From a virus, in IMG/VR virus record IMGVR_UViG_3300038393_001027, positions 32,001 to 96,000 of that record: a stretch of DNA of 64,000 nt; one strand, given 5' to 3'. The notes under the pieces are model-generated. The model saw only the letters and a list, made by a program, of their open reading frames with translations. It did not search any database and was not told the origin of the DNA. Each line of letters begins with the position of its first letter. Within the stretch, counting starts at the first letter, position 1. Positions 6,011 to 26,177 of this stretch are shown here, piece after piece. A program made the position numbers and the translations under genes.

Positions 6011-6038
6011 GTACACCAGCCAAATCAGGGCTGTGACA
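6011..6038 (-). promoter_or_regulatory. Repeated promoter-like motif, copy 1 (TGTCACA-N15-GTGTAC)
   Basis: Variant of the motif found 8 times in intergenic positions. Confidence 0.6.
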
Positions 6039-6043
6039 GCAAC

Positions 6044-6685
6044 TTAGTTGTTGCCCCAGTCACCGGGATCATACCCCATCGGGTACGGGTCATCTGGATC
6101 ATGACGCCAGCGGCGCCCGCCGCCGCCATATCCCCGTCGGGGCCGGGGCTTACGGATGATCCGGCCGTCTTCGGTCACGTCGTCGCAGGCGAAGGTGCAC
6201 TTGGGGTAGTTCGAGCATCCATAGAAGGTGCCGCTCTCGTCTTTGCGACTCCGCTTAACCAATACGCCGCCCAGCCGCCCGCGCTGTTTGCATTCAGGAC
6301 ACGTCACCGGGGCCGCCGTTGTCATTAGCCGCCCGGTAGAGTCACGGGTGAAGTTGAACTCGCCCGGCGGAATGGCTTCAACCCGCGCCTGCCCCTTGCG
6401 CCGGGCTTCTTCACGGTATTGCTCTGCCATACGGCGCCGCTCAGCGGCCAGCCGGGCTTCTTCGGCTTCGTTCTTCTGGCGCTTGGCTTCCATGGCGTCC
6501 ATTTCAGCTTCCCAGACCGCATGCCCAGCTTCTCGGACCATCTCCTCAGCCCAGTCCAACATCTTCTGGGCTGAGACGGTTCCTTCACCACCGCAGACAA
6601 GGCAAGCACGGGTGTGGCTTGCACCGAAGCGGCCGAAGCGTTCACCGCCACAGCCGTAGCAGGTGAAGCTCTTTGGTGCTGTCAT
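6044..6685 (-). CDS. Protein with DnaJ-like Zn finger, coiled coil and topoisomerase I-type C4 Zn ribbon
   Basis: CYGCGG..CLVCGGEG; CPEC..FYGCSNYPKCTF. Confidence 0.65.
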   Translation of the reverse strand: MTAPKSFTCYGCGGERFGRFGASHTRACLVCGGEGTVSAQKMLDWAEEMVREAGHAVWEAEMDAMEAKRQKNEAEEARLAAERRRMAEQYREEARRKGQARVEAIPPGEFNFTRDSTGRLMTTAAPVTCPECKQRGRLGGVLVKRSRKDESGTFYGCSNYPKCTFACDDVTEDGRIIRKPRPRRGYGGGGRRWRHDPDDPYPMGYDPGDWGNN

Positions 6686-7068
6686 CGTGCGGCACCTGCC
6701 CGGTTGATCGGCCAGCGGATGTCAATTTCCACATCCAGATGCGCCGCCCAAGCCATGATCTGGTTGCGAAGCTCTTCCCACGAATGCCCAACGCCCACGC
6801 CCGGCCGGATCAGCAGGGCTGTGCGTTCGTCCCCAAAGGGAACAAAGATCCAGCCGCACCGACTAAACGGTCCCCAGTCGAAGGCCAGAAATAGGGCCTC
6901 GTGCATGTACTGCACGTCCTTGTTGGCCATCACCAGCAGGATGCCCCTGTCGGCGTAGAAGGCCTCTTCAAAGTCCGGGGCGCCCGGCAGGGGCCGGATG
7001 GCCCCCTCCGTTAGCTCCCGAACGGTCTCAGCGTCAAGAGTCTTGGGTTGATCCCAAGGTTCAGCCAT
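6682..7068 (-). CDS. Hypothetical protein
   Basis: 128-aa ORF overlapping both neighbours. Confidence 0.65.
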   Translation of the reverse strand: MAEPWDQPKTLDAETVRELTEGAIRPLPGAPDFEEAFYADRGILLVMANKDVQYMHEALFLAFDWGPFSRCGWIFVPFGDERTALLIRPGVGVGHSWEELRNQIMAWAAHLDVEIDIRWPINRAGAAR

Positions 7069-7234
7069 TTGGTTCTACCACCTTTACGTCCAGTCGCTTG
7101 GTGATGATGTCCCCGTTGGCGAAGTTTGCATTCTGCAAGGCTTCCGCTGGGGTGTCATACTCTTCAACCGTGTAGCCATCATGGTGATTCAAAAATTTGA
7201 TCAGCAGGTAGGGTTTCGGCTTGGTGTTAGCCAT
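7061..7234 (-). CDS. Hypothetical protein
   Basis: MANTKPKP start behind GGAGGAGG. Confidence 0.6.
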   Translation of the reverse strand: MANTKPKPYLLIKFLNHHDGYTVEEYDTPAEALQNANFANGDIITKRLDVKVVEPNG

Positions 7235-9410
7235 CAGTTTTCGCCTCCTCCCAGAAGCGGTTTGGCGGTAGCCCAGCATCCTTGCGGATCTTGTTGTAGC
7301 CACTCGGACCCAACCAGATGCACACTCGGAAGGTCATCTTCGCCTGCCACGGGTCCTCGATGGCCCAGTCCATCGGATCGAGCCGTTGGAGGATGGGATT
7401 CCCCCGGTAGGCGACGTTCCCAGCCGTCCAGTGCTGGAGAACATCCGGCAAATCGGAAACTTCACAACCACAGAGAAGCGCCAACGCCGCCGCCGTAGTG
7501 GGCTTGAAATAAGCCTGAAAAGGGGCTTCTTTCCCTGTCCCCGTGACGAAACAAGCTCGCTTCTTTGTGGTGCTCGCTATGCTATGATCCCACTTCAGCG
7601 TACACAATCCAACGTCACCGCTGTCCCCGCTAAGCCATGCCTTAGACACATGGGCGCCCGTCACGTAACGTGTTTCGTGCTTACCGCTTTCACGCCACGT
7701 CCCCGGAACCCAGACCGTCTGGTACAGACCACAGATGTTCTGTGATTCAATCACATGACCGAAGCCGCCGTCATGCTTCAGATCGGGTGCTAGGAATTCA
7801 CCGCAGGCCACCGCCCGCAGAAGCGCTGGGGCGTTCGCCTTGATGCGTTCTTCATACCACTCGGCGATCTCGGCCCGACGTTCTACAAACTCGGCCCACG
7901 CCGCCTGCTGGATGCGCTTCGCAAGATTGTAGCGGGCCACCCAGTAGCGGTCAGCTTCGATGTCTTCAACCGTGCCAAACTTCTTGGCGTCCAGCGACTC
8001 GAATCCCACATGCACGATGTTCCTTTCGGCGTCAGTGATGAAGTGCGAGCGCTTGGCTTTCACCAGAGCCACCGCCTTTTCCACCGACGCCGGAAGCGAC
8101 AAGATACCTTGCTCATCAGGACCAACCTTGTTTAGGTCGTCTGCCGTTACCCGGTCCTTGTAGCGGTCCACCAACCAGAACGTCTCACCCGATGCGGCAC
8201 GGCGCCACTTACCGCGCTTCAACGCCAGATCGTGGTCAGTGATCTCCTCAACCGTGATGGGCGGAAGCTCCAGCGGCTTGTAGCGGCTCAGGTCCATGAG
8301 CGCCTTCCCGGCACCTAACGCCTCCGGTACGCGCACCATCTCGCCTGTATACGAAAGGCGTTTCGTCCGATAGCCCTCCACCCAGAACTTGTGCTTGAGC
8401 AGGCCAAAGACCATGATGAGCCAAACGATCTGCTCCGGTTGAAGGTCTGCCACCCTCACAAGCGGCTCGGGCCGCTCCTGATAACGCACCAGCCCAGTCC
8501 GATGCGTCTTGTCGTGAGTCATATCGCCGCTTTCGTTGACCTTAATGCCCAACACCTGATAGGGGAACCAGTACTGTGACGCCCGCTCGTCGAAGCGCCG
8601 TCCTTTCGACCGGGACCGCGACATACTGTTCTGCAGAGGGTGCGCGTTCTCCGTCTTGTCGGTCACCAGTGAGATGGTAGCGCCATTCTTGACGCCGAAG
8701 GCGAAATAGCTCTCCTCTGCATCAGGCTCCCACAGGATCGCCAACACCACGCCTGACGGGGCGCTCGGGTGTGTGAGTGACCGGATCATGGAGTTTACGT
8801 TCCAGTACCGGGCCACTTCCCGATAGAAGATCGGTTCGGCCCCGTCCGAATCACCCTGCATGAACTGATGCGTTGAGAGGCGCTTCGCACCATTCAAAGC
8901 ATCCCGGCGCAGGAAGGCCATGGCGTGCTTATCATCCAGCAGGTCAAAGACATCTTCCCGGTCGATTCCCCAGTCCTCCAACGTGCGGAACATGCCCGCC
9001 CGAAAGTCGTCCCGGTGCGCATTCAGATCCGGGGACCGCAGTAGGCCGAAGAGTTCCTTTGCAAGTGCTACGTCCTCTTCCACTTCCTGCAACTGTGCCT
9101 TCAGATGCGGGCTAACAAACTCCGGCCCCAACAGGCAGATGACAGGCAATGTCCACTCCGACAGGTACTCTTCCAGATAGTAGTCCAACAGAAGCATGGT
9201 GAGCAGGCCGCTGGGATCCAAGTCAGCCGCATCCTTCAAATCTTCGTGGGCGTCGTGCAGATGTCCCCAGCGCATACTAAAGCTGGTAACTCCCCGCTCG
9301 TCTTCCACACCCTGCTTCTTGAAGGTCAGCTTCTGCCAAAGCTCCAGTGCCTTTTCGACCTGACCTGTGAGGCCCCCCGGCTGGGGGGCCTCCTTCCTCT
9401 TCGCGCCCAT
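7227..9410 (-). CDS. Large hypothetical protein (727 aa)
   Basis: Long ORF; no motif recognised. Confidence 0.8.
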   Translation of the reverse strand: MGAKRKEAPQPGGLTGQVEKALELWQKLTFKKQGVEDERGVTSFSMRWGHLHDAHEDLKDAADLDPSGLLTMLLLDYYLEEYLSEWTLPVICLLGPEFVSPHLKAQLQEVEEDVALAKELFGLLRSPDLNAHRDDFRAGMFRTLEDWGIDREDVFDLLDDKHAMAFLRRDALNGAKRLSTHQFMQGDSDGAEPIFYREVARYWNVNSMIRSLTHPSAPSGVVLAILWEPDAEESYFAFGVKNGATISLVTDKTENAHPLQNSMSRSRSKGRRFDERASQYWFPYQVLGIKVNESGDMTHDKTHRTGLVRYQERPEPLVRVADLQPEQIVWLIMVFGLLKHKFWVEGYRTKRLSYTGEMVRVPEALGAGKALMDLSRYKPLELPPITVEEITDHDLALKRGKWRRAASGETFWLVDRYKDRVTADDLNKVGPDEQGILSLPASVEKAVALVKAKRSHFITDAERNIVHVGFESLDAKKFGTVEDIEADRYWVARYNLAKRIQQAAWAEFVERRAEIAEWYEERIKANAPALLRAVACGEFLAPDLKHDGGFGHVIESQNICGLYQTVWVPGTWRESGKHETRYVTGAHVSKAWLSGDSGDVGLCTLKWDHSIASTTKKRACFVTGTGKEAPFQAYFKPTTAAALALLCGCEVSDLPDVLQHWTAGNVAYRGNPILQRLDPMDWAIEDPWQAKMTFRVCIWLGPSGYNKIRKDAGLPPNRFWEEAKTDG

Positions 9411-9411
9411 G

Positions 9412-10041
9412 CTACCGCCCGCCCTTGTAGTAGTCAGCCGGGTTCAGGCCGATCTTTCCGATGTACTCCAGCAAGATCCGGAAGTTCTGCTCCAGCCGGG
9501 CGTTGTGCTTACGCACGTAGTCCTTCGCCTCCACCTGCGACAGAACACCGTGCTCCTTGATCTGGGCCAGCGTCAGCTTGATCGTGTGGGTGGGGAAGAT
9601 GCAGAAGCGCCGCGTGCCATCCGGCTCTACCGTGTCGTCCGGGCTAAGATCAACCTCGAACTGATCATCCAGCGACTGGTGCATGCGGCCCACGCCTTCG
9701 GAGCAGTAGACGAGGATGCCGCTCGGCCCCTCGATGACGGCGAGGTTGTCGTTCGCCACGCCGTGCGGGACCAGCGGCTGTTCGCCCTGCTCGACGCGGG
9801 CCTTGTTGCTGGGCATATCCAACACTGCCTGCCGGATGTTGTAGACGTTCAGCGGGGTGACGGCGGGCGCCGGGGGGTTCGGGCTGATCTCATCCATGAT
9901 GGGGTTCATAGGGTCATGGAGCGGCGGCCGGACCTCGCCGGGCAGGGGCTCATTCAGGACCTTCTCGATCTGCGGGGCCGTACGGTCAAGCTCAGCCTGA
10001 AACAAGCGGATGCCCTCAGCGATCTCGTCAGGGGTAGCCAT
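9412..10041 (-). CDS. Hypothetical protein
   Basis: MATPDE start behind AAGGAGG, downstream of motif copy 2. Confidence 0.75.
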   Translation of the reverse strand: MATPDEIAEGIRLFQAELDRTAPQIEKVLNEPLPGEVRPPLHDPMNPIMDEISPNPPAPAVTPLNVYNIRQAVLDMPSNKARVEQGEQPLVPHGVANDNLAVIEGPSGILVYCSEGVGRMHQSLDDQFEVDLSPDDTVEPDGTRRFCIFPTHTIKLTLAQIKEHGVLSQVEAKDYVRKHNARLEQNFRILLEYIGKIGLNPADYYKGGR

Positions 10042-10088
10042 GTGGGTGTCCTCCTTGGGGATGTGTTGGGTTGGGGGCGCCCAAGGCA

Positions 10089-10131
10089 CCCCCTCATTAC
10101 TTCCGTACACCGGGCTACTGGGGCTGTGACA
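10089..10131 (-). promoter_or_regulatory. Repeated promoter-like motif, copy 2
   Basis: TGTCACAGCCCCAGTAGCCCGGTGTACGGAAGTAATGAGGGGG. Confidence 0.75.
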
Positions 10132-10303
10132 GCTTCGTTTCTAGCACCGTTGCCCGGCGCCCTTCCAGCATGTCGGTTGGCACCCAGACCTGACAGAAAG
10201 GACAAACCAACGCCTCACCGTCCACCGGGTCCGGCTTCCAGTCCTGTTCTGCGGTCCACTCACTACAGAAGGGGCAGTGGATGGCCTGCACTTCCTGCGG
10301 CAT
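10115..10303 (-). CDS. Small double Zn-ribbon protein
   Basis: Two CPFC motifs; GGAGGTG RBS; stop lies inside motif copy 2. Confidence 0.6.
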   Translation of the reverse strand: MPQEVQAIHCPFCSEWTAEQDWKPDPVDGEALVCPFCQVWVPTDMLEGRRATVLETKLSQPQ

Positions 10304-10315
10304 GTTGCACCTCCG

Positions 10316-12433
10316 CTAAAGCTGAATGTTGGGGTTCAAAGCCTGCGCCTTGCTGATCGTCACCGTCGTGGCCGGGTTGAAGCTCGCCAGAGGCGCTGTG
10401 CTGGCCGCCCGCCGGGGCTGAACCAGCGACTTCAACTCTTCCAGCGTGATCAGCTTGGCGAAGGCCTCTTCCGACAGTTCACCGTCCTCGACCAGCGCTT
10501 GGAAGATGGTGCGCTTGGAGTCCAGAAGCTTCATCTTGGCCTCTTCGAAGCCATCCCGGCAGAGGAGGTTGATGACCGTCACCGGGTTCTTCTGCCCAGA
10601 CCGATGGACACGGCCGTAGATCTGGTTCATCTTCTGGGGGTTAAAGTGCTGGTCAAGACAGATCACATAGTCGCCTTCCGACGTGCCGCTCTTGTCGAAA
10701 AGCTCCACGCCATAGTTGGCGGCCGTCGTGATGATGGCGATGCGGGTCTTGGGGTCCGTTTGGAACTTCTCAACCCGCTCGCTGATCTCAATGGACTTCA
10801 GCCCACCCTTGATGTAGACAAAGCCTACATGCGGGTAACGAAGCTGGATCTCCCGAAGTACGATGTCGGTCATCTCCACGTACTGGCTGAAGATCGTCAC
10901 CTTGTGCGTCACAAGGCCGATGTCCCCGATGATCTTCCACATCTCATCCAGCTTGGCACTCTCAGCCGGGATCGACATGTCCCGGATGATCGTCGTGACA
11001 GGCTCACCTGCTCGGTTGACTTTCACGCGCTCCTGACCGGGGTTCTCCGGGTCCGGCTCCATGACATAGACCACTTCGCCCAGCACCCGTTGCATGATCT
11101 CTGTCGTGTTGCAGACCTGCTGAAGCCGGGTGATCTGGGCCATGACAGCGAGGTACTGGGTCGTCTCGCCGTCTTCGTCGTCCCATGACTGCAGGATGCC
11201 CTCAACGATCTGGTCGTAGAGCTTCTCCTGCGCCGGGGTGTAGTCAACCCACTGCTCTAAGATGGTCAGTTCAGGCAGGTTGAGCGCGTCCTTCTTGGTT
11301 TTGCGCATGGATAGCGGCTCCAGCCGGGCTTTCAGTTCCGGCAGGGTCTCCGGGTTCGGCTGGCCTGTGCTGTGCCCGCCATAGTCGGTCAGGATGTAAC
11401 GGTCCTTGTACTGCGCCCACGTGCCCAGATAGCCCGGCCGGATGAAGTCCACGAGGTTGAATAGCTCCTCGATGTTGTTCTCCAGTGGGTTGGCCGTCAG
11501 CAGAGCCTTCCAGCCCGCCCCGCCGCAGATCTCGAAGAGCCGCTTGGACGCCACGCCCGTGTTCTTGACCCGGTGCGCCTCGTCAAGGATGACGCCCCAC
11601 GTCTGGTCGATGCCCAGCGCCCGCAGGAACTCGTGGTCGTTCATGAACAGTTCGTAGTTCACGACAATCACGTCTACATCCTGCTCGTACTGGACCTTAC
11701 GAAGCTCCTTTCCGGACACCCGCCGGATGTTGGGAACCATGCGGCCCGTCTTGCCTCGGAGGTACTTCTTCTTACCGTCCACCAAGGTATAGACGCGCTT
11801 GCCTTGCTCATCGCGGATCCAGTCCTCTTCCTCGATCATGCCGTAGTCCACATCGTCCGGTAGGTCACCGTCGATGATCTGGACCGACAGGTCCGTCCAC
11901 TGGCCGACTTCCTTGCGCCACGTGGAATACTTCAGCGGCGCCGGACAGATCACCAACAGGCGCTTCAGCCGTTTGCCTGCGATGAGCCGCAGACCAGCGG
12001 CGAGGGCGCCCAGTGACTTGCCTAGACCAACGTCCCATGCAAGGATGCCGCCGTCGCCAACCTTGACGTCCGTCAGGAACTGCACGCCAACCTTCTGGTA
12101 GTCACGGAGCGCCCAGCCGTTCGGCGACTTCAGTCCGTTAATGGTGATGGCGGATGCCTCTTGATTCTTGATCTGAATGCGCCGGGTGGCCTCAGCCAGT
12201 TGCTCCTTTAGCTGGGCCTCAACCTGTGGCGGGAGCATGGCCTGCGGGAGGAGGCGCTTGGCCTCCTCCAGATTCATCAGCGGAACCTCGTAGGCGCCCC
12301 GAACGCCGCCGGGGAGCATGAGTTCCTTCTCGAAGACGGCGCCGGGGATCTGGCGCAGGATGTGTCGGACGCTGAAGCCGTTCTTGATGCAGAACTTGGT
12401 GGGGTCCTTGGGGTGAGCGCAGAAGATGATCAC
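10316..12433 (-). CDS. SNF2-family (SF2) helicase/ATPase
   Basis: LRDYQ Q-motif, DVGLGKS, DEAH, TANPLEN, FSQY, QIYGRVHRSGQ; GTG start at 12433 behind GGGAGGT. Confidence 0.9.
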   Translation of the reverse strand: MIIFCAHPKDPTKFCIKNGFSVRHILRQIPGAVFEKELMLPGGVRGAYEVPLMNLEEAKRLLPQAMLPPQVEAQLKEQLAEATRRIQIKNQEASAITINGLKSPNGWALRDYQKVGVQFLTDVKVGDGGILAWDVGLGKSLGALAAGLRLIAGKRLKRLLVICPAPLKYSTWRKEVGQWTDLSVQIIDGDLPDDVDYGMIEEEDWIRDEQGKRVYTLVDGKKKYLRGKTGRMVPNIRRVSGKELRKVQYEQDVDVIVVNYELFMNDHEFLRALGIDQTWGVILDEAHRVKNTGVASKRLFEICGGAGWKALLTANPLENNIEELFNLVDFIRPGYLGTWAQYKDRYILTDYGGHSTGQPNPETLPELKARLEPLSMRKTKKDALNLPELTILEQWVDYTPAQEKLYDQIVEGILQSWDDEDGETTQYLAVMAQITRLQQVCNTTEIMQRVLGEVVYVMEPDPENPGQERVKVNRAGEPVTTIIRDMSIPAESAKLDEMWKIIGDIGLVTHKVTIFSQYVEMTDIVLREIQLRYPHVGFVYIKGGLKSIEISERVEKFQTDPKTRIAIITTAANYGVELFDKSGTSEGDYVICLDQHFNPQKMNQIYGRVHRSGQKNPVTVINLLCRDGFEEAKMKLLDSKRTIFQALVEDGELSEEAFAKLITLEELKSLVQPRRAASTAPLASFNPATTVTISKAQALNPNIQL

Positions 12434-12732
12434 TTCTGAACACCTCCCACCTGAAGCTCCATGCACTCAGTAACAGGATGCGGGCCGTCAGCCGGATAGG
12501 TCTTGAAATAAACCTGATCCCACCCAGCCGTCCTGAACGCTTTAATCAGTTGCTCCCGTACCCAGTTCGTGACCCCACCCCGTAGCGGAACTGACACGTT
12601 GACCTTCCCCTGCGTGGCATAGGAAAGGATCGTGGTGTTAGCGTGCGTAATCATGGCGCCCAGCACCTCGTTCTCCTTGGCGCGAAGCGCTTCCTGCACC
12701 TGAGTACTCAGCGGTCCTAACGGCGTCGGCAT
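12430..12732 (-). CDS. Hypothetical protein
   Basis: MPTPLG start behind AAGGAGG. Confidence 0.7.
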   Translation of the reverse strand: MPTPLGPLSTQVQEALRAKENEVLGAMITHANTTILSYATQGKVNVSVPLRGGVTNWVREQLIKAFRTAGWDQVYFKTYPADGPHPVTECMELQVGGVQK

Positions 12733-12768
12733 GATGATGCCCTCCTTTGTGCTGGGGGTGGAGGACCA

Positions 12769-12811
12769 CCCCCGCATTACTTACGTACACCGGGCTACCG
12801 GGGCTGTGACA
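12769..12811 (-). promoter_or_regulatory. Repeated promoter-like motif, copy 3
   Basis: TGTCACAGCCCCGGTAGCCCGGTGTACGTAAGTAATGCGGGGG. Confidence 0.75.
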
Positions 12812-12812
12812 G

Positions 12813-13103: not shown

Positions 13104-13116
13104 GACTAGACCCTCC

Positions 13117-14558: not shown

Positions 14559-14560
14559 GG

Positions 14561-16971: not shown

Positions 16972-17658
16972 TTAGAAGCTGAAGTCGTAGTACTCACTCC
17001 GGGCGCCCAGCCCGATGGAGTAGTTGCGATCCTTGATCGTACCCTTGATCCAGTAGATCCGCCCGTTACGCTCGACCCGCCGGGCGTCGTAGGTCTGGCC
17101 CTCCGGGTCCCGCTCGAAGCGGTAATCCTGCGATTCGCTCATGCCGTTCGTGTCAATGCGCTCGGCTCGGTCCTGCTGGACCTCGACGCCCTTGACCCGG
17201 CCGTCCTTGGTGAACAGGACCTTGCTGACCGTGGCCGCATGGCGGTCGCTGAACATGATGACCGTCGCCGGGGCGCCCACCACCGGGCCGATGACGTCGT
17301 AGATCATGGAGAGGATGCCGCCCTCACCGTGCGGGTAGTCCGTCCGGTTGTCATAGGGGACCACGTTCCCTGCCGGGTCTACGATCTGGTAGTGCCGCTC
17401 GATGCGCTCCTCCGGGGCCTTGCCGGGCGGGCGCACCGTGAAGGTATGCGTGTCGGTCAGGTAGAGCTTGTAGCCAGCCGCATGGAGCTTTGCCATGGTC
17501 TCGGCCAGCACCTCCGGCACCATCTCGGTGGAGTCGGTCGGATGCGGGCCGTTCGGTAGCTCAGTCCACGTGGAGCGGTCACGACGGTTCGGTAGGTTGG
17601 CGATGACGGTCTGCAGGCGGGAGCTAGTCTGCTGGGTGCTCATACGTTCGGTGGTCAT
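16972..17658 (-). CDS. Hypothetical phage protein
   Basis: MTTERM start behind AAGGGGG, downstream of motif copy 4. Confidence 0.75.
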   Translation of the reverse strand: MTTERMSTQQTSSRLQTVIANLPNRRDRSTWTELPNGPHPTDSTEMVPEVLAETMAKLHAAGYKLYLTDTHTFTVRPPGKAPEERIERHYQIVDPAGNVVPYDNRTDYPHGEGGILSMIYDVIGPVVGAPATVIMFSDRHAATVSKVLFTKDGRVKGVEVQQDRAERIDTNGMSESQDYRFERDPEGQTYDARRVERNGRIYWIKGTIKDRNYSIGLGARSEYYDFSF

Positions 17659-17698
17659 GTGGTTATCCCCCTTGTTGTTGATGGGGGGCGGGGTTGCG

Positions 17699-17742
17699 CC
17701 CCCCTCATTACTCTCGTACACCGGGCCTCTGGCGCTGTGACA
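17699..17742 (-). promoter_or_regulatory. Repeated promoter-like motif, copy 4
   Basis: TGTCACAGCGCCAGAGGCCCGGTGTACGAGAGTAATGAGGGGGG. Confidence 0.75.
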
Positions 17743-18593: not shown

Positions 18594-19217
18594 TTACCCG
18601 GCCTGCTTCTTGTTCTTGGTACCTTCAGCCTTGCCTGCCGACTTGCCACGGGCGCCGCTGGCGCCCTTCTTGGCGTCATGTGACACCTTAGGCGTCTTCG
18701 ACGTCTTGGGCGCCGCCTTGGTCTTGCTGGGGGCCTTGGGCGGGGTCTCAGGGGCGGCGCGTTCAGCAAGCTCCGCAAGCTGGCGCCGATCCGCCCGTGC
18801 CGCCCGGCCCGCCGCTCGTTTGGCCTGCGTATCGGCCTGCACCTTATCCCACCCGGTCAACTCCCGTTTGGCCGGGGTCTGCGCCTCAAACACGATGGGG
18901 GTCTCAGCCTTGGCCTTAGCTGGCTTGGCCGGGCGCTCAGGCTTGGTGGGCGCCTTGTACTCGACACCCTTGAGCTTCCCAAGGATGCCCTCGAACAGAT
19001 CAGCCTCCAGAAGCTGGGGCTTCTCAAAGCCCGGCTTCCCGTCAGCACCGATGGAGCGCTGGGCAATCTTCACGAAGTGCTTCGTGATGCCGTGCGCAAC
19101 CATCGTCGATTCAACGACTCGAACCTCCGTCTGGGTCTCCGTGTTCTGCCGGATGAAGCTCGCCAGCGTACGGCCCTCGATGAATTCGTAGTCCGTCTTC
19201 TGCTTATCGTCTGCCAT
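18594..19217 (-). CDS. Putative DNA-binding protein with K/A/P-rich basic tail
   Basis: Start downstream of motif copy 5; highly basic low-complexity C-terminus. Confidence 0.65.
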   Translation of the reverse strand: MADDKQKTDYEFIEGRTLASFIRQNTETQTEVRVVESTMVAHGITKHFVKIAQRSIGADGKPGFEKPQLLEADLFEGILGKLKGVEYKAPTKPERPAKPAKAKAETPIVFEAQTPAKRELTGWDKVQADTQAKRAAGRAARADRRQLAELAERAAPETPPKAPSKTKAAPKTSKTPKVSHDAKKGASGARGKSAGKAEGTKNKKQAG

Positions 19218-19261
19218 GTGTGATGCAACCCCTTCGGTTTGATTGGGGGCGATAGTCGCCG

Positions 19262-19304
19262 CCCCCTCATTATTTCCGTACACCGGGCCTCTAGGCCTGT
19301 GACA
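19262..19304 (-). promoter_or_regulatory. Repeated promoter-like motif, copy 5
   Basis: TGTCACAGGCCTAGAGGCCCGGTGTACGGAAATAATGAGGGGG. Confidence 0.75.
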
Positions 19305-19506
19305 CAGCCTTTATCAGCAGGCTTGCGGCATAGCCGTGCCAGCGCTCGTCATCAAGTTGGGTCTCCGTGAAGACCACCATCGTACGGCCACGCCGGACAA
19401 TCCGGCGCACCTTGCCCGGCCGGGATGTTCCGGCCGGGCGCCGCAAGGCTACCATGTCACCGATGACCACCCGGCCATCCCAGATCGTGGCGCTTTTGCA
19501 GTCCAT
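19291..19506 (-). CDS. Small hypothetical protein (SH3/KOW-like)
   Basis: IGDMV..GKVRRI pattern; stop lies inside motif copy 5. Confidence 0.5.
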   Translation of the reverse strand: MDCKSATIWDGRVVIGDMVALRRPAGTSRPGKVRRIVRRGRTMVVFTETQLDDERWHGYAASLLIKAVSQA

Positions 19507-19507
19507 G

Positions 19508-19987
19508 CTAGGCGCCCTGCTTCCAGTAACGGTTCTCGATGGGGCCGTGGTTCATGACCGTATCACAGTCGTACATGGCCCAGCGTCCGGTTGACACCGA
19601 CTCAAAGCTGAATGGAGCCACAATCTCAATCTTCTCGATGACCTTACCGCTGACATCCATGTCTACGATCAGATCACCTACCGATAAGCTGTTCATGTTG
19701 TAGCAATCATACCCTGCCTGCCGAGCCTCCTCATCCAGATGCTCCAACACACCAACCGGATCCTCTTCAACCCGGTTGAACTCACGGAAGATGTGCTGAT
19801 CACGCTGAAGCGGAGTTAGCTCACCTTCCCAGACCATGCGGTAGAGGGGCGCTGTCTTCTCGGTGAAGCATCCCTTCCGTGCGTCAAAGTAGGCCTTCAG
19901 CGTCTCCGAGTCAATTGGCTGACCTGCCCCATCGAAAACCTTATTCATGTCGATCTGGTAGATGCGAACCATCATGCTGATGACCAC
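19508..19987 (-). CDS. YodL-like domain protein
   Basis: IYQI..YRMVWEG..IFREFN..SLSVGDLIV..FSF matches the YodL pattern. Confidence 0.65.
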   Translation of the reverse strand: MVISMMVRIYQIDMNKVFDGAGQPIDSETLKAYFDARKGCFTEKTAPLYRMVWEGELTPLQRDQHIFREFNRVEEDPVGVLEHLDEEARQAGYDCYNMNSLSVGDLIVDMDVSGKVIEKIEIVAPFSFESVSTGRWAMYDCDTVMNHGPIENRYWKQGA

Positions 19988-20032
19988 CTTTCGTTTGATG
20001 GGGGCGGGGTGGCCGCCCCCGTTGTGCCTTAG

Positions 20033-20710
20033 CTACGCTGAGACAACTACCACGGCGTGCTCCAGCGTCGGGATCTCCTGCCGACGGTTCCGGTCGTAGC
20101 CTTGCGATGCCCACAGCAGGTAGAACCGATCGTAGATCTTCTCGACCATGGCCGTTTGCACCCCAGCCTTGTAGACGTACCACTGGTTCTCGTTCTCCTG
20201 CAGGATCTCGATGGCCTCCGGGTCGGTCACCTTGAAGGGGACGTGATCGAACAGGGAAACACGCTTCAACTTACCGCCTACGCAGATGTAGGCCTCATGA
20301 TCCGACTTCAGCGTTCCATTCGGGAAGTAGCACTTCGTCCACGCGATGGCGTGTGCCACCTGCTGAGGCTTACCCGTCAGTCCATGGAGGTGGGTACCCA
20401 TATCCCGAACCACCCAGACGAAACCGTTTGTCAGATAGTCAGGGTGCTTCGCCAGCGCCTCTAAGTCATGCAAGAAGTCCTCGTGGTAGGCGTTGATCTT
20501 CTTCGATGCGATCTCGGCCATCTGCTGGACCACCGGGTTGGCGCCCAGCTTGCGCCACAGACGCTGGATGCTCTTCAGCCGGGCCTCGTACGTGCGAAGC
20601 TCTTCCATACGGAACTCGGTAGAGCCGTGCTCCTCGATGCAGGCCTTCATGCTCTGAATGCCGTCTTTGCACTTGGTCTCGATCACGGTCACAATGGCAG
20701 GCTTCGTCAT
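20033..20710 (-). CDS. Hypothetical protein
   Basis: MTKPA start behind AAGGGGG, downstream of motif copy 6. Confidence 0.75.
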   Translation of the reverse strand: MTKPAIVTVIETKCKDGIQSMKACIEEHGSTEFRMEELRTYEARLKSIQRLWRKLGANPVVQQMAEIASKKINAYHEDFLHDLEALAKHPDYLTNGFVWVVRDMGTHLHGLTGKPQQVAHAIAWTKCYFPNGTLKSDHEAYICVGGKLKRVSLFDHVPFKVTDPEAIEILQENENQWYVYKAGVQTAMVEKIYDRFYLLWASQGYDRNRRQEIPTLEHAVVVVSA

Positions 20711-20748
20711 GGTGGGGTCCCCCTTGGTTTTGTTGGGGGCGCAGGGCG

Positions 20749-20791
20749 CCCCCTCATTTCTCTCGTACACCGGGCTACTGAAGCTGTGACA
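20749..20791 (-). promoter_or_regulatory. Repeated promoter-like motif, copy 6
   Basis: TGTCACAGCTTCAGTAGCCCGGTGTACGAGAGAAATGAGGGGG. Confidence 0.75.
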
Positions 20792-21104
20792 CCTTGGTAT
20801 AGATGGCGTTCAGCCGCCGCAGGTACTCATCCGCCCGGCCACGGAGCCAGTCGATGCGGCCAGCCTCGTCCTCGGAGAAGACCGGGCCGTAGCTGTTAAG
20901 ACCGTCGATGAAGTTCAGTACGCCAATCGCCCGCGCCAGCCAGCGGCTGGCATTCTTGTAGTACTCCGCTAGACGGCGCCCAGCCGCCGGGTTGGAGAAT
21001 GCGTACTCAGCAACGTTTTCAGCCGCCTTTAAAATCTCTAAGGTCTTGTCGATGTCCTGCGTCAGCGCCGCGATGCCTGCCTGCTGGGCCTTGATGTCAA
21101 GCAT
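20775..21104 (-). CDS. Hypothetical protein
   Basis: MLDIKA start behind AAGGAG; stop lies inside motif copy 6. Confidence 0.65.
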   Translation of the reverse strand: MLDIKAQQAGIAALTQDIDKTLEILKAAENVAEYAFSNPAAGRRLAEYYKNASRWLARAIGVLNFIDGLNSYGPVFSEDEAGRIDWLRGRADEYLRRLNAIYTKVSQLQ

Positions 21105-21177
21105 GCCGATCCGCTCCTTCGCTATCATTATGGACGATCTTGGACAACTACACACATGGGAAAGGCAGGGAGCGCTT

Positions 21178-21375
21178 CTAACCGAAGCGCTCCGTCGTCT
21201 TGAAACGGGCCTCAGCTTCAAGATAGGCCTCGTCAGGGTCTCTGGGATGGGCCAGAACCGTTAGCTCCGTGCCATCCTTGAACCAGAAGGTCATGCTGTC
21301 GTCCCAAAGCTCAACGCGGTCGATCAACTTACCTTCGAAGACCTCAGTTAGGCGCTTGGATGCCTGCTCCTTCAT
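21178..21375 (-). CDS. Hypothetical protein
   Basis: Coupled to the upstream gene by ATGA overlap. Confidence 0.6.
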   Translation of the reverse strand: MKEQASKRLTEVFEGKLIDRVELWDDSMTFWFKDGTELTVLAHPRDPDEAYLEAEARFKTTERFG

Positions 21376-21773
21376 TCCAAACCCCACCTTTTCCGCAGTT
21401 CAGTGTGCAGGGCCTTGTAGATGGTCCGGGTCTTCAACCACTCCACCGGGTCAGCGTTCATTAACGCCTCCATCTCACGTTCGAAAGCGTCCTGCGCTCC
21501 ATCACCGTGGGGCCGCGTACCAAAGACGTAGTAACGCAGGATGAACGCATCTAGGTAGCGCTTTGCGTTCCGCTCCAACATACACACGGTGTTGTGCAAG
21601 TGGTTGGTATCCATCTGCGACGGAACCAGCTTGCGTCCGTCACGGGTTACCCAGATCGTGGAGTCCAACCACGTCAGGTCATCGTCAGACACCACCTGCT
21701 TAGGCGCCACCCGCTTGGATGGCGCCTTCGGCGCAGGCTTCAGCCAGCCGAACAGCTTCTGCCACAGGTTCAT
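21372..21773 (-). CDS. Hypothetical phage protein
   Basis: WVTRDGR..SQMDT.HL.N motif; 133 aa. Confidence 0.7.
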   Translation of the reverse strand: MNLWQKLFGWLKPAPKAPSKRVAPKQVVSDDDLTWLDSTIWVTRDGRKLVPSQMDTNHLHNTVCMLERNAKRYLDAFILRYYVFGTRPHGDGAQDAFEREMEALMNADPVEWLKTRTIYKALHTELRKRWGLE

Positions 21774-21775
21774 TC

Positions 21776-22033
21776 CTACTTACCCCCCACGTAGATGCTG
21801 TAGACCTCGACCGGGGCCATGGCCCGCTCGTTCCCCTCCGGGTAAACGTTCAGGTGGTAGCCTGTGCCTGCCCCGCTCAGGGCATCCATCGAAGTAGAGA
21901 CCCCGCACGGCTCGTTTGTAGGATCCCCGGTGCCGTGGTAGTGTCGGACGCCGTACTCAGCACAGATGTCTTGTACGATCTCCCAAGCCTTGGACCACGT
22001 GGCCGCCTTGTGCACCTTGCGTTCCTTCAGCAT
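21776..22033 (-). CDS. Hypothetical protein
   Basis: MLKERK start downstream of motif copy 7. Confidence 0.65.
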   Translation of the reverse strand: MLKERKVHKAATWSKAWEIVQDICAEYGVRHYHGTGDPTNEPCGVSTSMDALSGAGTGYHLNVYPEGNERAMAPVEVYSIYVGGK

Positions 22034-22069
22034 GATCACTCCACCCTTCGTTTGATTGGGGGCCGGGCG

Positions 22070-22112
22070 CCCCCTCATTATTCTCGTACACCTGCCCACA
22101 AAGGCTGTGACA
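22070..22112 (-). promoter_or_regulatory. Repeated promoter-like motif, copy 7
   Basis: TGTCACAGCCTTTGTGGGCAGGTGTACGAGAATAATGAGGGGG. Confidence 0.7.
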
Positions 22113-22500
22113 GGTTATTATTTTAGAAAATTCTGGCACACTTCCCCATATATCTATATATAGATATAGATATAGATAGATATAGATAGATATTTAAATA
22201 AATCATCATTCATATCATTATCATCATCTAGATCAATCTCAAGCCTTTTGGTTTCCGGCCGGGGCCGCTGGGGCAACTACCCTTTTTGTGGGTCGCAACT
22301 CGTTATCCTTTGAAAGGCTATCAACTCGGTGACTCTGAAAGTAACACACTTCACCGCCGCTGAGCCGCGAAAAAATAAAAAGAAAAACACCCGGCGATTT
22401 TTATTTTTACTTTTGGGGGAGGGGGGGCCTCTTTTGAAAATGTAATGCGTGAAAGGCTACCAGTTGATAGCCTTTCACGCATTTGACGTTGCCGTCGGGT
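22113..22500. other. AT-rich non-coding locus with palindromes and TAGATA repeats; candidate replication origin or terminus
   Basis: 20-bp palindrome 22149-22168, TAGATA-like repeats to ~22195, 16-bp perfect inverted repeat 22444-22483, inverted copy at 22311-22326. Confidence 0.45.
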
Positions 22501-22501
22501 T

Positions 22502-23098
22502 TCAGGTGGTCTCGATCTCGTCAATGATGATCAGTTCAGCGTCAAGTCCAGTACCCAAATACTCGGGGTGCCCGTTTGTCGTCCGGTAGTATAGGTAGCT
22601 GGTTGGCTGTGTCTGCGCTTTGGGCTTCCGGTTCCGGGATCGGAACTTGGGGCGTCTGCATCGCTCGCCAAGGCGCTGTATGAGGGATTTAGCGCCCCCG
22701 ATCCCTGCGGGCCGCTCACCCTTCGTCCGGATCAGTGCGTAGTCGCCCCAGCTTCCCAGCCGCAGGAACCGCTCGGACTGGATGAACAGGTTCGCTTCAC
22801 GGCGGCTGGGCGCCCATGCGATGCTCTGCCCGATCACTCGGTCGAAGATGCGCCAGCCGGGTCTGGTTACGTCCTTCAAGAGCTTGCGGTACTGTTCATT
22901 CATCCGGGACACCTCCCGCGGGTTCCGGAAATACCGGGTCGGGATGCCTGACGCCTCACACAACTGCATCAGCAGACGCTTCTCGTATTCTGCCATGTTC
23001 ACTTCGAACGTACCACGCAACGGCATGATCTGTACACCGTTGCGGCCGATCGTCTTGCCCTGTGCATGGGCCTTCAGCGCTTCTTCAAAGCTTGCCAT
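22502..23098 (-). CDS. Hypothetical protein
   Basis: 198-aa ORF behind AAGGAGG. Confidence 0.7.
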   Translation of the reverse strand: MASFEEALKAHAQGKTIGRNGVQIMPLRGTFEVNMAEYEKRLLMQLCEASGIPTRYFRNPREVSRMNEQYRKLLKDVTRPGWRIFDRVIGQSIAWAPSRREANLFIQSERFLRLGSWGDYALIRTKGERPAGIGGAKSLIQRLGERCRRPKFRSRNRKPKAQTQPTSYLYYRTTNGHPEYLGTGLDAELIIIDEIETT

Positions 23099-23662
23099 CT
23101 AACGGGCCTCCTTTAGGTAGTACGTGTCGCCCCGCTCCAGTGCCGCTTTGACCGCCGCTTCTAGTAAGTCGGTTGTTCCAGCCTCACCACTCGCCCGGTC
23201 AAGGTATTTGAGCGCGGCGGCTTCGTCTAGGCGCACAAGTGGTTGAACTTTGCGGTAGCTGTTCAGCATCAGGATCTCGCCTGAAGGCTCATAGGTGAAG
23301 TAGACCTTGTTGGGGTCCAGCTTCATCAGGCTCACGTAGCTCCGAAAGACGTGACGGCCAACGTTGCTTAGGATGGTGTAGAACCACGGCCGGGCGCCCG
23401 GCGGGGCCGTCTGGGGCGGAATTCGGCGCCCCAGACGAAGGTGCCCCGTCAGTGGCCGCTCCGGGGGAAACCACTCATAGCCGTCTTCGTCAGGCATGAA
23501 AACCTGAACCATGGTAATGTCGTGGTTGGTGTGGAACTTCGCCTGCGCGTGCGCATACAGCCAATCGAAGTTCTCAGCAGTGTTAGGCGTTGGGACCGGG
23601 AGGCGCGTTTCCCATGGACGCCCCCGGTCGCCAAACCACTTGAAAGTTGCCTGATGGCTCAC
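23099..23662 (-). CDS. Hypothetical protein
   Basis: GTG start overlapping upstream stop (GTGA), GGAGG RBS. Confidence 0.65.
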   Translation of the reverse strand: MSHQATFKWFGDRGRPWETRLPVPTPNTAENFDWLYAHAQAKFHTNHDITMVQVFMPDEDGYEWFPPERPLTGHLRLGRRIPPQTAPPGARPWFYTILSNVGRHVFRSYVSLMKLDPNKVYFTYEPSGEILMLNSYRKVQPLVRLDEAAALKYLDRASGEAGTTDLLEAAVKAALERGDTYYLKEAR

Positions 23663-24813
23663 TTCCGGCGTTCCTCCTTGCCCTTGGCCCACTGCTCCAT
23701 CTGCTCCAGCGTTTTGAAGAAGGTGGCCTCTTGCTTGTCACTGGCAAACTCGCCGTACTGCACGAGGCGCCCCATGATGTCGTCCAGCATGGCGAACTTC
23801 TCAGCTTGGCTGGGCATCCACTGGCCCAAGCTGGGATTGAAACCCTTCTTCTCGCTCCACTTGATGTGTGCGATGGCCTCCACCCGGCTGATCACGCCCT
23901 GCCACTTGTTCACGTTGGAGGCCTCATCCTGTGGCTGGGACCGCTTCATCTGCTTCTCGACGGCGGCGATCATGCCCTCGGTGGGGATCCAACCTGTGAC
24001 GTCGCTCAGGTAACGGCCGAACTTCTGGCGCATGGACGCCCAGAACTCGTTGCCCGGATCCTCAGCGGCCTTTTGCTGGATGAACTCCATGTGGGTACCG
24101 AACTTAGCCTTGCGCTCCGCAAGCTGGGCGGCCTCGGCCGCCTTACGCTCGGCCTGCAGGCGTTGGATCTCTGCGTCGGCGGTCTCTTTGGCTTCCGCCA
24201 GCTTGCCGATGGGGTTATCCAGCATGTGCCTACGGGCAAACTCGATGATGCCGCCCATCTTCTTCTCGCCATGCTCACCAGACTCGATGGCCCGCCGGGC
24301 CTCGAAGAGCGGGTGTGGCAGGAAGGCGTTCTCACCGTTCAGGGCCTTGAAGGCCTTGATGTAGTCCAGTACGTCCTTAAACCGCTCAACATAGGTGACC
24401 TTACGCTCAGCGGCACGAGCCTCCTTCTGCTTCTTCTGGAACTCCTTTTGAAGCTCGGCTGTCTTCAGTTCCGCCAGCCGGGCCTGCGACGGGTTCACGA
24501 TGGCGTAGTTACCCAGACAGTCGCACCCAAGCACACGCTCCCGGAAGATGTCGCCGGGTCCCGTCTGCCAGCACACCTGCTTGTAAATGATCGGGTGCCC
24601 GCAAAGCTGGCAGGAGACCGGGATCGGGATGCCGTTGGGTAACCGTGACTCTTCCGTGTGGCCGTACTTGATGTATTTGGCCGGGTCGTCACCGTCAGGG
24701 ATCCCCCAAGCCTGTAGCTGTTCGATGATGCGTCGTTCGTAGTTCCGGGCCTGTGCGCTGTTGCCGAAGGTACCCTCGATCTTCTGCGCCGCCGCCGTTG
24801 CCTTCTTAGGCAT
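23659..24813 (-). CDS. Hypothetical protein with Zn-binding motif and coiled coil
   Basis: CQLCGHPI..LGCDC; GGGAGG RBS. Confidence 0.8.
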   Translation of the reverse strand: MPKKATAAAQKIEGTFGNSAQARNYERRIIEQLQAWGIPDGDDPAKYIKYGHTEESRLPNGIPIPVSCQLCGHPIIYKQVCWQTGPGDIFRERVLGCDCLGNYAIVNPSQARLAELKTAELQKEFQKKQKEARAAERKVTYVERFKDVLDYIKAFKALNGENAFLPHPLFEARRAIESGEHGEKKMGGIIEFARRHMLDNPIGKLAEAKETADAEIQRLQAERKAAEAAQLAERKAKFGTHMEFIQQKAAEDPGNEFWASMRQKFGRYLSDVTGWIPTEGMIAAVEKQMKRSQPQDEASNVNKWQGVISRVEAIAHIKWSEKKGFNPSLGQWMPSQAEKFAMLDDIMGRLVQYGEFASDKQEATFFKTLEQMEQWAKGKEERRK

Positions 24814-24888
24814 GTGAAACCCTCCCTATTGCTGTTGGGGCCGGGTGGGTCCGGCCCCTACCTCTATTCTAAACGAAACTGGACAATC

Positions 24889-25344
24889 TTACTCAATCGG
24901 CGCGTAGAAGGCAACAGGCTCCCCTGTCACGTTGTCATGGCGGCTGATGACTGTGAAGCCCTTCGTGTCCAGATCCTTTTGGCGGGACTGTCGGACGACT
25001 TCCATGTACTCAGCGCCCCGGTCCCGGTAGCGGTCCCGCTTGTAGTAGCGGTTCATGAACTCTTCCAGCGTCTTGACGTCGGTCACCCTGTACTTGCGGG
25101 CGCTCTCATAAGCGCCCCAGTACTCCTCCACCTTGCCGTTTCGCCGGAAGGTCATGAAGGTATAGTCACCCCGCGTGACCTTCAGGACATGCGCGGCGGC
25201 GTTCGAGGCATCCGGGTTGTCGATGAGGAACTGCCGAGCGGCGGCGACGGCCTCCTCTTCGGTCTCGAAGAAGTGATCCTTGTTTAGGGGCTTGGTCGCA
25301 TCAAAGCTGTCAATCACAGTCTGCAGGCCGTAGGGCTTCGTCAT
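24889..25344 (-). CDS. Hypothetical protein
   Basis: 151-aa ORF behind AAGGAGG. Confidence 0.75.
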   Translation of the reverse strand: MTKPYGLQTVIDSFDATKPLNKDHFFETEEEAVAAARQFLIDNPDASNAAAHVLKVTRGDYTFMTFRRNGKVEEYWGAYESARKYRVTDVKTLEEFMNRYYKRDRYRDRGAEYMEVVRQSRQKDLDTKGFTVISRHDNVTGEPVAFYAPIE

Positions 25345-25380
25345 GGTGATAGCCTCCTTGGGTGTGGTTGGGGATCGGGT

Positions 25381-25923
25381 CTAGTCAGTGAAGATCGATC
25401 GGAACTTGACGACCCAGCAGAGGCGCTGGTGCCGATCTGCAAAGTAGTGGCCGTCCAGATAGGTTTGGCCGATGCCGTCAAAACCGCTGGAACCCAACTG
25501 CGGAAACCGCTTCATGGCCTCCGGCCACACCGTCTTGGCCCACTCCTCAATCTGAGCCTTCGTGACCACCTGCGGGTCTACCATCACGGCATAGAGCGTC
25601 TCACTGTCGGCATAGGGACGGGGCTGGCCTGCGGCGATGCAGACCACGTAGTTGCCCGATAGCAGTTGTGGCTTACGGTCAAACTGGCCGTAGCCTTCGA
25701 GTCGGGGCGTATAGCTGGAATCAGGCGCCGGGGCCGAGGCGCCATTAGCTACGTAGCCGTTCATAGCAAAGTTCCGGGCCGTGTCCATCGCCGCCTTGAA
25801 GTCCAGTCGCATGAAACCCTGCATGGGAAGCCCGTTCTCACAGACGTCGTGCTTGTCACGCTGATCAGGATTCCGTCGTACGCTAAACCGATGCGCCGTG
25901 TAAGGATAAGTCACTTCAGTCAC
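25381..25923 (-). CDS. Hypothetical protein
   Basis: 180-aa ORF overlapping upstream gene end. Confidence 0.7.
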   Translation of the reverse strand: MTEVTYPYTAHRFSVRRNPDQRDKHDVCENGLPMQGFMRLDFKAAMDTARNFAMNGYVANGASAPAPDSSYTPRLEGYGQFDRKPQLLSGNYVVCIAAGQPRPYADSETLYAVMVDPQVVTKAQIEEWAKTVWPEAMKRFPQLGSSGFDGIGQTYLDGHYFADRHQRLCWVVKFRSIFTD

Positions 25924-26125
25924 CCTCCTTGCTGTTGGTCGGCGGCTTCAGCGGCTGGAAGTTGGTGTCGATGCCCAACCGGGTGCACTCCTTCTCAATG
26001 GCCGCATGGGCAAGGTTCAACTTCTCCTGCAGGTCGGCGGCCTCCACCGGATCAGTGGTTCGGCGCGGGGCATCTTTCAGATTCCGAGCCTCGATGTTCA
26101 GGAAGCAAAGTCGGTTTGTGTCCAT
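25916..26125 (-). CDS. Hypothetical protein
   Basis: MDTNRL start behind GAGGAGG, downstream of motif copy 8. Confidence 0.65.
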   Translation of the reverse strand: MDTNRLCFLNIEARNLKDAPRRTTDPVEAADLQEKLNLAHAAIEKECTRLGIDTNFQPLKPPTNSKEGD

Positions 26126-26135
26126 AGTGGTATCC

Positions 26136-26177
26136 CTCCTCATTATTGTCGTACACCGGGCTACATGGGCTGTGACA
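26136..26177 (-). promoter_or_regulatory. Repeated promoter-like motif, copy 8
   Basis: TGTCACAGCCCATGTAGCCCGGTGTACGACAATAATGAGGAG. Confidence 0.75.

Follow-up and report, generated by a model that had tools for sequence, protein, structure and literature searches.

Repeated regulatory cassettes have been described in T4-type phages, in which the promoter early stem-loop (PeSL) units run from a stop codon, through a sigma-70-like early promoter and a polyG/polyC stem-loop, to a Shine-Dalgarno (SD) sequence and a start codon (PMC2839356, PMC4122927). These units are repeated among ORFans and mediate the shuffling of gene cassettes (Arbiol et al. 2010, PMC2839356; Comeau et al. 2014, PMC4122927). 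The promoter of the extracytoplasmic function (ECF) sigma factors of group ECF41 has been experimentally defined as TGTCACA-n16(+/-1)-CGTC (Wecke et al. 2012, PMC3426412), and virion-delivered transcription is known from N4, where a virion RNA polymerase (vRNAP) uses hairpin promoters (PMC4496689), and from the vRNAPs of phiKZ and AR9 (PMC5312081). Here we describe a repeated unit of ~90 nt in the complete 111,151-bp genome of an uncultured soil phage (IMG/VR virus record IMGVR_UViG_3300038393_001027; ~60% G+C, 104-bp terminal repeats). By comparison of its parts, the PeSL promoter and stem-loop cassette is the closest known kind of element, and the unit is a likely promoter on the strength of its sequence and position. 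Positions given below refer to the 64,000-nt window (bases 32001-96000 of the genome), except where genome coordinates or another record are named.

The window was searched with the pattern TGTCACA-N10-20-GTGTAC, which returned eight matches, all on the minus strand, with 0.01 expected by chance. The two words are separated by 14 nt in seven of the eight copies and by 15 nt in the copy at 6011-6038. All eight copies, with their coordinates, minus orientation and spacing, had been listed in the original prediction and were reproduced by this search. Genome-wide, 13 exact copies are present, and two more differ from the pattern by one mismatch each. A 14th, carrying CGTCACAG, was located at genome position 16823 by a position-weight scan, and a 15th, diverged copy was located at genome position 103737, directly after the portal gene, by a mismatch-tolerant scan. 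In this last copy box 2 reads GGCGTAC and box 3 is lacking, while the hairpin and ribosome-binding site (RBS) are present. The minus strand thus carries all 15 copies, with the plus strand devoid of any, whereas ~0.45 matches were obtained in block shuffles. Each copy is located immediately 5′ of a co-oriented minus-strand gene, such that the unit precedes 15 gene blocks. The repeated element is real, and is larger and more numerous than first described. It had also been stated that no copy occurs in the structural region, which holds in so far as the motif is limited to the non-structural half, apart from the one diverged copy after the portal gene.

The unit is made up of box 1, a spacer, box 2, box 3, a GC hairpin, an A/C-rich linker, an SD and an ATG, in this order. 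Box 1 (TGTCACAG) is mostly preceded by C, with TGTCACA exact in 14/15 copies, and box 2 (GGTGTAC) is mostly followed by G, the geometry being TGTCACA-N16-GTAC in 14 copies and N17 in one. Box 3 (TAATGAG) follows box 2 after four loosely conserved bases. The 12-nt spacer between boxes 1 and 2, previously described as variable, is in fact semi-conserved (consensus CCCCAGTAGCC; CCCCAGTAGCCC among the aligned copies) and contains the TAG stop codon of the upstream gene in six to seven copies. In these copies, the element itself encodes the in-frame tail of the upstream protein (...LSQ(P)Q*; the asterisk denotes the stop codon), with box 1 read as ...LSQ; the tails are KLSQPQ*, ELSQPQ*, ALSQPQ*, KVSQLQ*, GRLSQS* and KAVSQA*. 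The sequence CTGTCACAG forms a 9-bp palindrome in 11/15 copies. The linker after the hairpin is AATCAAAC-like and leads into the SD and start codon, with 50-63 nt from box 2 to the start codon in the hairpin copies, in agreement with the constant orientation and position ahead of an RBS that had been claimed. Two copies in the window depart from this plan. At 26151-26177, the hairpin is absent and box 3 has the sequence GAGGAGG, which doubles as the SD, while the copy at 6011-6038 lacks both AATGAGGGGG and the hairpin and has a spacer longer by one base. A leaderless start at the ATG within box 3 was rejected, as this ATG is in frame with the gene in approximately one-third of the copies only, which is the level of chance.

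A hairpin of 6-9 bp (mostly 8), starting with GGGGG and ending with CCCCC, follows AATGAGGGGG in 11 copies, and a 12th (genome 16823) has a weak 4-bp stem only. Stem positions 1-5 are invariant G-C pairs, while position 6 occurs as C-G, G-C, T-A, A-T or T.G and position 8 as C-G, G-C or G.T. With the stem arms in the correct register, the inner pairs are formed in 27/27 cases in the nine copies with an 8-bp stem, which represent seven distinct stems; 1/20,000 shuffles of the right arm matches this. Judged from this covariation, the hairpin is selected as a structure. Two wobble pairs are possible only in sense-strand RNA, which is indicative of a transcribed structure. Its loops are 3-6 nt long and conserved in neither length nor sequence. 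No sense-strand U-tract follows the hairpin, AATCAAAC or ATCAA being found there instead, and a role as Rho-independent terminator was rejected on this ground; canonical terminators with T-runs are present elsewhere in the phage genome. No RNA family was matched in an Rfam search of the window. When read on the plus strand, the hairpin together with TCATTATT receives a terminator-like score (19245-19266, 20735-20753 and 22058-22074), and could in this direction damp antisense transcription through the cassettes.

Table 1. Copies of the repeated unit in the window and associated features (window positions unless another record is named).
Feature	Position	Strand	Description
GTGTAC-motif matches	6011, 10105, 12785, 17716, 19278, 20765, 22086, 26151	minus	Pattern search of the window
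Copy 1	26123..26177	minus	Boxes 1-3 without hairpin; box 3 (GAGGAGG) provides the SD for a 69-aa ORFan (ATG 26125)
Copy 2	22031..22112	minus	Boxes 1-3, 6-bp hairpin, SD, start of 85-aa ORFan
Copy 3	20708..20791	minus	Boxes 1-3, 8-bp hairpin, SD, ATG of 225-aa ORFan; upstream stop is the spacer TAG
Copy 4	19215..19304	minus	Boxes 1-3, 8-bp hairpin (one G.U), SD, ATG of 207-aa ORFan; upstream stop inside spacer
Copy 5	17656..17742	minus	Boxes 1-3, 8-bp hairpin, SD, ATG of 228-aa ORFan
Copy 6	12730..12811	minus	Boxes 1-3 (box 3 AATGCGG), 8-bp hairpin (sixth stem pair T-A), SD
Copy 6, first genes			100-aa ORFan (ATG), then SNF2 helicase
Copy 7	10039..10131	minus	Boxes 1-3, 9-bp hairpin (one U.G), SD
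Copy 7, first genes			209-aa protein (phrog_32110, ATG), then 727-aa ORFan
Copy 8, atypical	5980..6038	minus	Boxes 1 and 2 only, SD 9 nt past box 2
Copy 8, replication block			Heads 81-aa open reading frame, primase-MCM, PolA, ThyX and ribonucleotide reductase; next 21 kb without a copy
In-element gene ends	20775-20791, 19291-19304, 10115-10131; L009 ~16158, 14290, 12450		Unrelated genes, one frame
Intrinsic terminator of late/lysis operon	26212..26239	minus	7-bp GC stem, 5-nt loop, TTTAATTT
Terminator-like hairpin and T-run	22436..22480	minus	Head of AT-rich, microsatellite-bearing intergenic element before copy 2
Candidate reader	56288..57250	minus	Sigma-70-family module, regions 2.2, 2.4/3.0 and 4; residues ~330-585 of the 2096-aa SNF2 protein (51857-58147)

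Nearly all genes of the phage are encoded on the minus strand. In the structural part of the genome, from 111 kb to ~58.3 kb, there are genes for the terminase and portal, for three large SNF2 proteins, one of them the 2096-aa open reading frame (ORF), and for protease/scaffold, major head, sheath, tape measure, baseplate, fibre, holin and amidase proteins. The motif-headed blocks span genome positions 58,177 down to 7,556 and contain many small ORFans, as well as genes for an SNF2 helicase, the 727-aa ORFan, primase-MCM, PolA, ThyX, ribonucleotide reductase and the sliding clamp. No Pfam or PHROG match was obtained for 9/10 of the first genes after the copies. Copy 1 is located ~35 nt downstream of the terminator of the late/lysis operon, with the holin and amidase genes just upstream, and copy 2 is preceded by an AT-rich element headed by a terminator-like hairpin. 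The copy at genome 16823 is found within an 88-nt divergent gap between a plus-strand YdjM-family gene (e-value: 5e-21) and the first minus-strand gene, a location that requires a promoter. Apart from the motif, no promoter is visible for the genes that follow the copies at terminators or at the divergent junction. Sigma-70-type promoters number 5 in the region, with 5.4 expected, and thus show no enrichment, and a k-mer search of gene-upstream regions revealed no separate late-promoter motif.

Two AT-rich (44-48% GC) non-coding elements are present in the genome, one just 5′ of copy 2 (22116-22486) and the other (L011 4873-5350; genome 99350-98873) 5′ of the cargo cluster that includes the sigma-bearing ORF described below. 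Both contain ATCT/ATAG microsatellites and A/T runs, and each is preceded by a strong terminator. These elements may hold host-type promoters or an origin, with weak sigma-70 matches (9/12). A plus-strand island (L009 16835-19881 and L010 2818-3303), with a motif copy at its divergent edge, encodes the YdjM-family membrane protein, a 66-aa ORF and a 754-aa ATPase of the type IV secretion system coupling-protein/HerA-like type.

We suggest that the unit represents a phage-specific promoter-plus-leader cassette, of which the 15 copies, in one orientation, would divide the non-structural genome half into blocks of genes, with the transcription of each block boosted separately. Since box 3 of copy 1 is the SD of the downstream gene, box 3 must be transcribed, which places the start site between box 2 and GAGG; box 2 would therefore be -10-like and box 1 -35-like, with box 3 and the hairpin forming a transcribed leader. 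AATGAGGGGG is likelier to be transcribed leader than a promoter element, as it provides the base of the hairpin and, in one copy, the SD. Boxes 1 and 2 would be contacted by a sigma-70-family holoenzyme with a non-primary sigma, and the probable site of initiation would be the conserved A residues in TAATGAG, 6-8 nt past box 2. Initiation at these residues would leave only a few nucleotides between the 5′ end and the hairpin, an arrangement known to stabilise bacterial mRNAs. The transcript would thus open with the 5′-proximal 8-bp GC hairpin, most likely serving 5′-end protection or leader insulation, followed by the A/C-rich linker, the SD and the start codon. The proposal that the boxes are the -35 and -10 elements of an alternative sigma factor is borne out in part, namely by their promoter-like position after terminators and at a divergent junction, their co-orientation with the genes and the lack of sigma-70 promoter enrichment. 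The sequence of the boxes suggests that such an alternative sigma factor is the most likely reader.

Several other promoter classes were considered and rejected. A sigma-54 promoter is at variance with the absence of the invariant GG from TGTCAC and the wrong spacing of the -12 element. A sigma-70 -10 element at the conserved A(A/G)TAAT would have G at -11 in six copies, with box 1 situated 23 nt away; for a -10 of the PeSL type, likewise, the A at -11 could not be consistently placed in this sequence. A T7-like promoter was discarded as there was no PF00940 match, though the positive control was equally silent. No phage RNA polymerase was found in the genome, the controls of the PF00940 search also being silent. 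Among the wholly unexplained proteins of the putative early region, the largest is encoded by the 727-aa ORF (7227-9410, minus strand) of a motif-headed block. It was rejected as a hidden RNA polymerase, with no support from Pfam, PHROG or Atlas (Atlas model pLDDT, the predicted local distance difference test: 0.34).

A candidate for the reading factor is encoded within the 2096-aa SNF2 ORF of the head region. The original prediction had placed a sigma domain here, and a sigma-like module was recovered at this site by NCBIfam models, alignment of a homologue to RpoD, Foldseek and VIA. The NCBIfam sigma models (RpoD_Cterm, sigma70-ECF, RpoS and RpoH) match residues 33-281 of the excised segment, covering regions 2 to 4 (Bitscore: ~25; e-value: 1e-5). 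The module carries a region 2.2 core-binding signature (DLAQEFRTGLLEGV), followed by a region 4 helix-turn-helix (ELAVIQARHGLG...ISHDNARQRYSRGLKKLK). An exhaustive search retrieved six relatives only, four of which are giant-protein relatives sharing 28-31% identity, and an alignment of four homologues conserves a region 2.2-like DL.Q...G..G and the region 4 signature. The homologue P0003 matches solved RpoD structures in region 2 (sigma70 401-484) and region 4, with e-values down to 1e-6. The AlphaFold (AF2) model of the module has a pLDDT of 66, and all of its top 50 Foldseek matches are sigma factors. In the VIA comparison, sigma4 reached a Z-score of 9.5 (92 residues, 3.3 A) and the whole module a Z-score of ~8.9 over 216 residues against residues 191-423 of Thermus thermophilus sigmaA. 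A divergent sigma2-3-4 module in the giant ORF is thus well supported by sequence and predicted fold, and its sequence looks like that of a group 1-3 sigma with region 3. The Trp dyad of region 2.3 is replaced by Ala-Arg, which would fit an unusual, non-canonical -10 element.

The likeliest reader of the element would be host core RNA polymerase together with this divergent sigma module, which could come with the virion or be expressed from its own transcription unit. Taken as a whole, this reading, a promoter-leader cassette read by the module of the giant ORF, appears reasonably probable from the sequence, while the specific pairing of module and motif is one that we infer tentatively. Sigma cascades are well known in phages, with gp28 and gp33/34 in SPO1 and gp55 in T4. 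The system described here would resemble these in having a phage-specific consensus unlike that of the host at the head of gene blocks, and in the candidate use of a phage sigma with host core RNA polymerase, and its capsid is distantly SPO1-like. It differs in that the candidate sigma is a module of a 2096-aa SNF2 head-region protein and not a small, free-standing early protein, and in its consensus. Should the module travel in the capsid, there would also be a likeness to N4 and phiKZ, in that an injected factor would read the early promoters and a hairpin is present at the sites; in the present phage, however, the loops vary in length (3-6 nt) and sequence, and the G.U pairs suggest that the structure forms in RNA and is not a hairpin extruded from DNA. 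A survey of polyvalent proteins makes no mention of sigma (PMC5512222).

The neighbours of the giant ORF are genes for a protein with PGDYG and GNAT acetyltransferase domains (58150-59946, minus strand) and a second large SNF2 helicase (59950-63027, minus strand). The three make up a series of genes for large enzymes, with the portal gene on one side and the protease gene on the other.

Several observations weigh against the promoter-leader reading and its proposed reader. In the six to seven copies in which the upstream gene ends inside the element, no terminator is present, so that read-through must exist and the element could act on RNA. It is thus conceivable that no transcription is initiated here, with boxes 1 and 2 being an operator or stoperator-like site, or with the unit acting on read-through RNA as a processing site, 3′-end stabiliser or attenuator. 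Polycistronic read-through crossing these copies would suit such a role, as would the CTGTCACAG palindrome in most copies, the location of the hairpin 25-30 nt past the stop codons concerned, which is the usual place of a 3′ hairpin, and the terminator-like character of the hairpin and TCATTATT on the opposite strand. Genes following the terminators and the divergent junction would, however, be left without a visible promoter, the sense strand lacks the U-tract seen at the canonical terminators of this phage, two copies retain boxes 1 and 2 in the absence of any hairpin, and the strict orientation and fixed distance to the start codon suit a promoter and leader better than an operator. As such, we consider a role without initiation quite improbable.

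A second difficulty is the -10-like GTAC, as we know of no sigma-70-family -10 element of this form. The -35 word TGTCACA is identical to that of ECF41 promoters, and a short -10 word follows at an identical distance of 16 (+/-1) nt, but this word is GTAC within GGTGTAC and not CGTC (or TGTT). No ECF41-type sigma with a C-terminal extension and none of the target genes of such factors, encoding carboxymuconolactone decarboxylases, oxidoreductases or epimerases (COE), were seen; the first genes downstream encode ORFans or the sliding clamp. There are 15 targets, as opposed to the single autoregulated operon of ECF41, and the module aligns to RpoD/RpoS/RpoH-type models over ~250 residues. The resemblance of the -35 word to ECF41 that had been pointed out accordingly stands, as does the agreement in spacing (PMC3426412), whereas the -10 word and the missing sigma and COE genes do not fit. 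The resemblance is real, but the motif does not belong to an ECF41 system.

The module itself falls far short of the cut-offs of the curated models, scoring 24.8 bits for TIGR02937 (cut-off: 42.9) and 18.8 for Sigma70_r4 (cut-off: 24.1). Pfam Sigma70_r2 has no match in the whole genome, the Pfam region 4 matches in the giant ORF are sub-threshold and overlap a Myb-like match, and helical folds easily reach middling Z-scores. The promoter could instead be read by an alternative sigma of the host, whether ECF41-like or another ECF factor, or by another phage factor, with the module performing a different job. The identity with ECF41 promoters in -35 word and spacing and the position of the module below every curated sigma cut-off speak for this alternative, and the many ORFans of the putative early region could hide another phage factor. 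The -10 word nevertheless differs from CGTC, and ECF41 factors are reported to serve essentially one target operon (PMC3426412), which is a thin basis for the control of 50 kb of phage genes. Furthermore, the motif is not a recurrent signal in bacterial genomes, with two matches in 596 Gb, a level expected by chance. A host sigma or another phage factor as reader is therefore improbable, and the module of the giant ORF is retained as the favoured candidate.

The timing of expression also tells against the module. The sigma-bearing gene forms its own transcription unit among the head genes, behind a terminator with a 13-bp stem and an AT-rich element, and is not preceded by a copy of the motif. 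The replication genes carry the motif and need to be expressed ahead of the late genes, and the module would therefore need to be delivered with the virion or expressed from an early host-type promoter. It may be speculated that the 15 cassettes together form the regulon of this module of the giant SNF2 'polyvalent' head protein, which would enter the cell along with the phage DNA or be set free by the head protease, although we regard this as rather unlikely. If true, transcription by host core RNA polymerase would be diverted by the module to TGTCACAG-N12-GGTGTAC promoters already in the first minute of an infection, and a virion-delivered sigma with a defined promoter set would represent a third strategy beside the virion RNA polymerases of N4 and phiKZ and the early sigmas of SPO1 and T4.

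Like PeSLs, the unit is a repeated composite of ~50-100 nt with a stop codon, promoter, G/C stem-loop, SD and ATG, concentrated among the ORFans of a large myovirus, in the plastic part of its genome, and would provide a plausible crossover point for cassette shuffling. The in-frame ...LSQ(P)Q* tail with its TAG stop, which the element supplies to six to seven upstream genes, likewise belongs to the shared features. There are, however, several differences. PeSL promoters match the host sigma-70 consensus and have AT-rich upstream sequence, while the boxes here (TGTCACAG/GGTGTAC) are unlike TTGACA/TATAAT. The stem-loops of PeSLs are variably placed and terminate transcription, whereas the hairpin of the present unit invariably lies 3′ of both boxes, is not followed by a U-tract and probably belongs to the leader of the transcript. 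Furthermore, the phage is SPO1-like by its major head protein (34% identity) and not T4-like. The conserved layout is PeSL-like, and the non-sigma-70 consensus, the fixed downstream hairpin without U-tract and the different phage lineage set it apart.

The related phage L060, with ~70% nucleotide identity, is syntenic with genome positions 64,034-58,838 (67-73% identity). It retains boxes 1-3 at the same place, with diverged flanks, and shares the order of terminator followed by motif. The 69-aa ORFan downstream of copy 1 (25916-26125) is absent from L060 (5613-5852), in which the motif, hairpin and SD directly precede the homologue of the 177-aa gene; in the phage studied here, the ORFan takes the place of the hairpin leader. 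This comparison comprises one case in a single relative. A DNA search of the phage collection gave no match, and the full motif is absent from IMG/VR, where a relaxed two-box pattern gave 99 single matches at chance level, only L060 being related. A metagenome scan for the motif returned one unrelated chance match (L118). Nothing new emerged from protein-based searches for the locus, in which the queries were the SNF2 helicase, the 727-aa ORFan, the sigma-module alignment and the homologues P0004 and P0002.

In addition to its proposed transcriptional function, the ~90-nt repeat could, as a by-product, supply crossover points for the swapping of ORFan cassettes in the manner of PeSLs. The repeat might even be kept chiefly as a recombination module, a mobile regulatory cassette for ORFan exchange whatever its role in transcription. 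This is in line with the 15 near-identical direct repeats of 45-90 nt flanking mostly ORFans (9/10 first genes without a match), the indel relative to L060 exactly at the element boundary, the common in-frame ...LSQ(P)Q* tails, as expected from crossover within the element, and the PeSL precedent (PMC2839356, PMC4122927). The indel is known from a single comparison, however, and exchange leaves the two-box geometry, hairpin covariation and SD spacing unexplained. Recombination would thus constitute an added role rather than a replacement for the promoter-leader cassette, and we doubt that it is the chief one.

Promoter-leader cassettes constitute the wiring of the accessory genes of large phages, and their consensus tells which form of polymerase runs the programme. 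In the present phage, the consensus is unlike that of the primary sigma of the host, and the sole sigma-like protein in the genome is the putative module in the giant SNF2 protein of the head region. Should their pairing be true, it would provide a compact and testable case of promoter recognition by a factor that the phage itself brings along. It would further yield an orthogonal sigma/promoter pair that is portable and comes with 15 naturally occurring variants of the promoter, as well as a set of natural 5′ hairpins with which leader stability could be studied. Should it be false, the units would still offer a clean PeSL-type architecture outside the T4-type phages, supporting such cassettes as a general device for ORFan shuffling.

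A further palindrome, GGGCGCCC, occurs 94 times in the 111 kb genome, with ~7 occurrences expected from base composition. It is found in 19/131 gene-upstream regions and is often located inside terminator-type hairpins, such as those at window positions 26221-26239 and L011 5294-5323.

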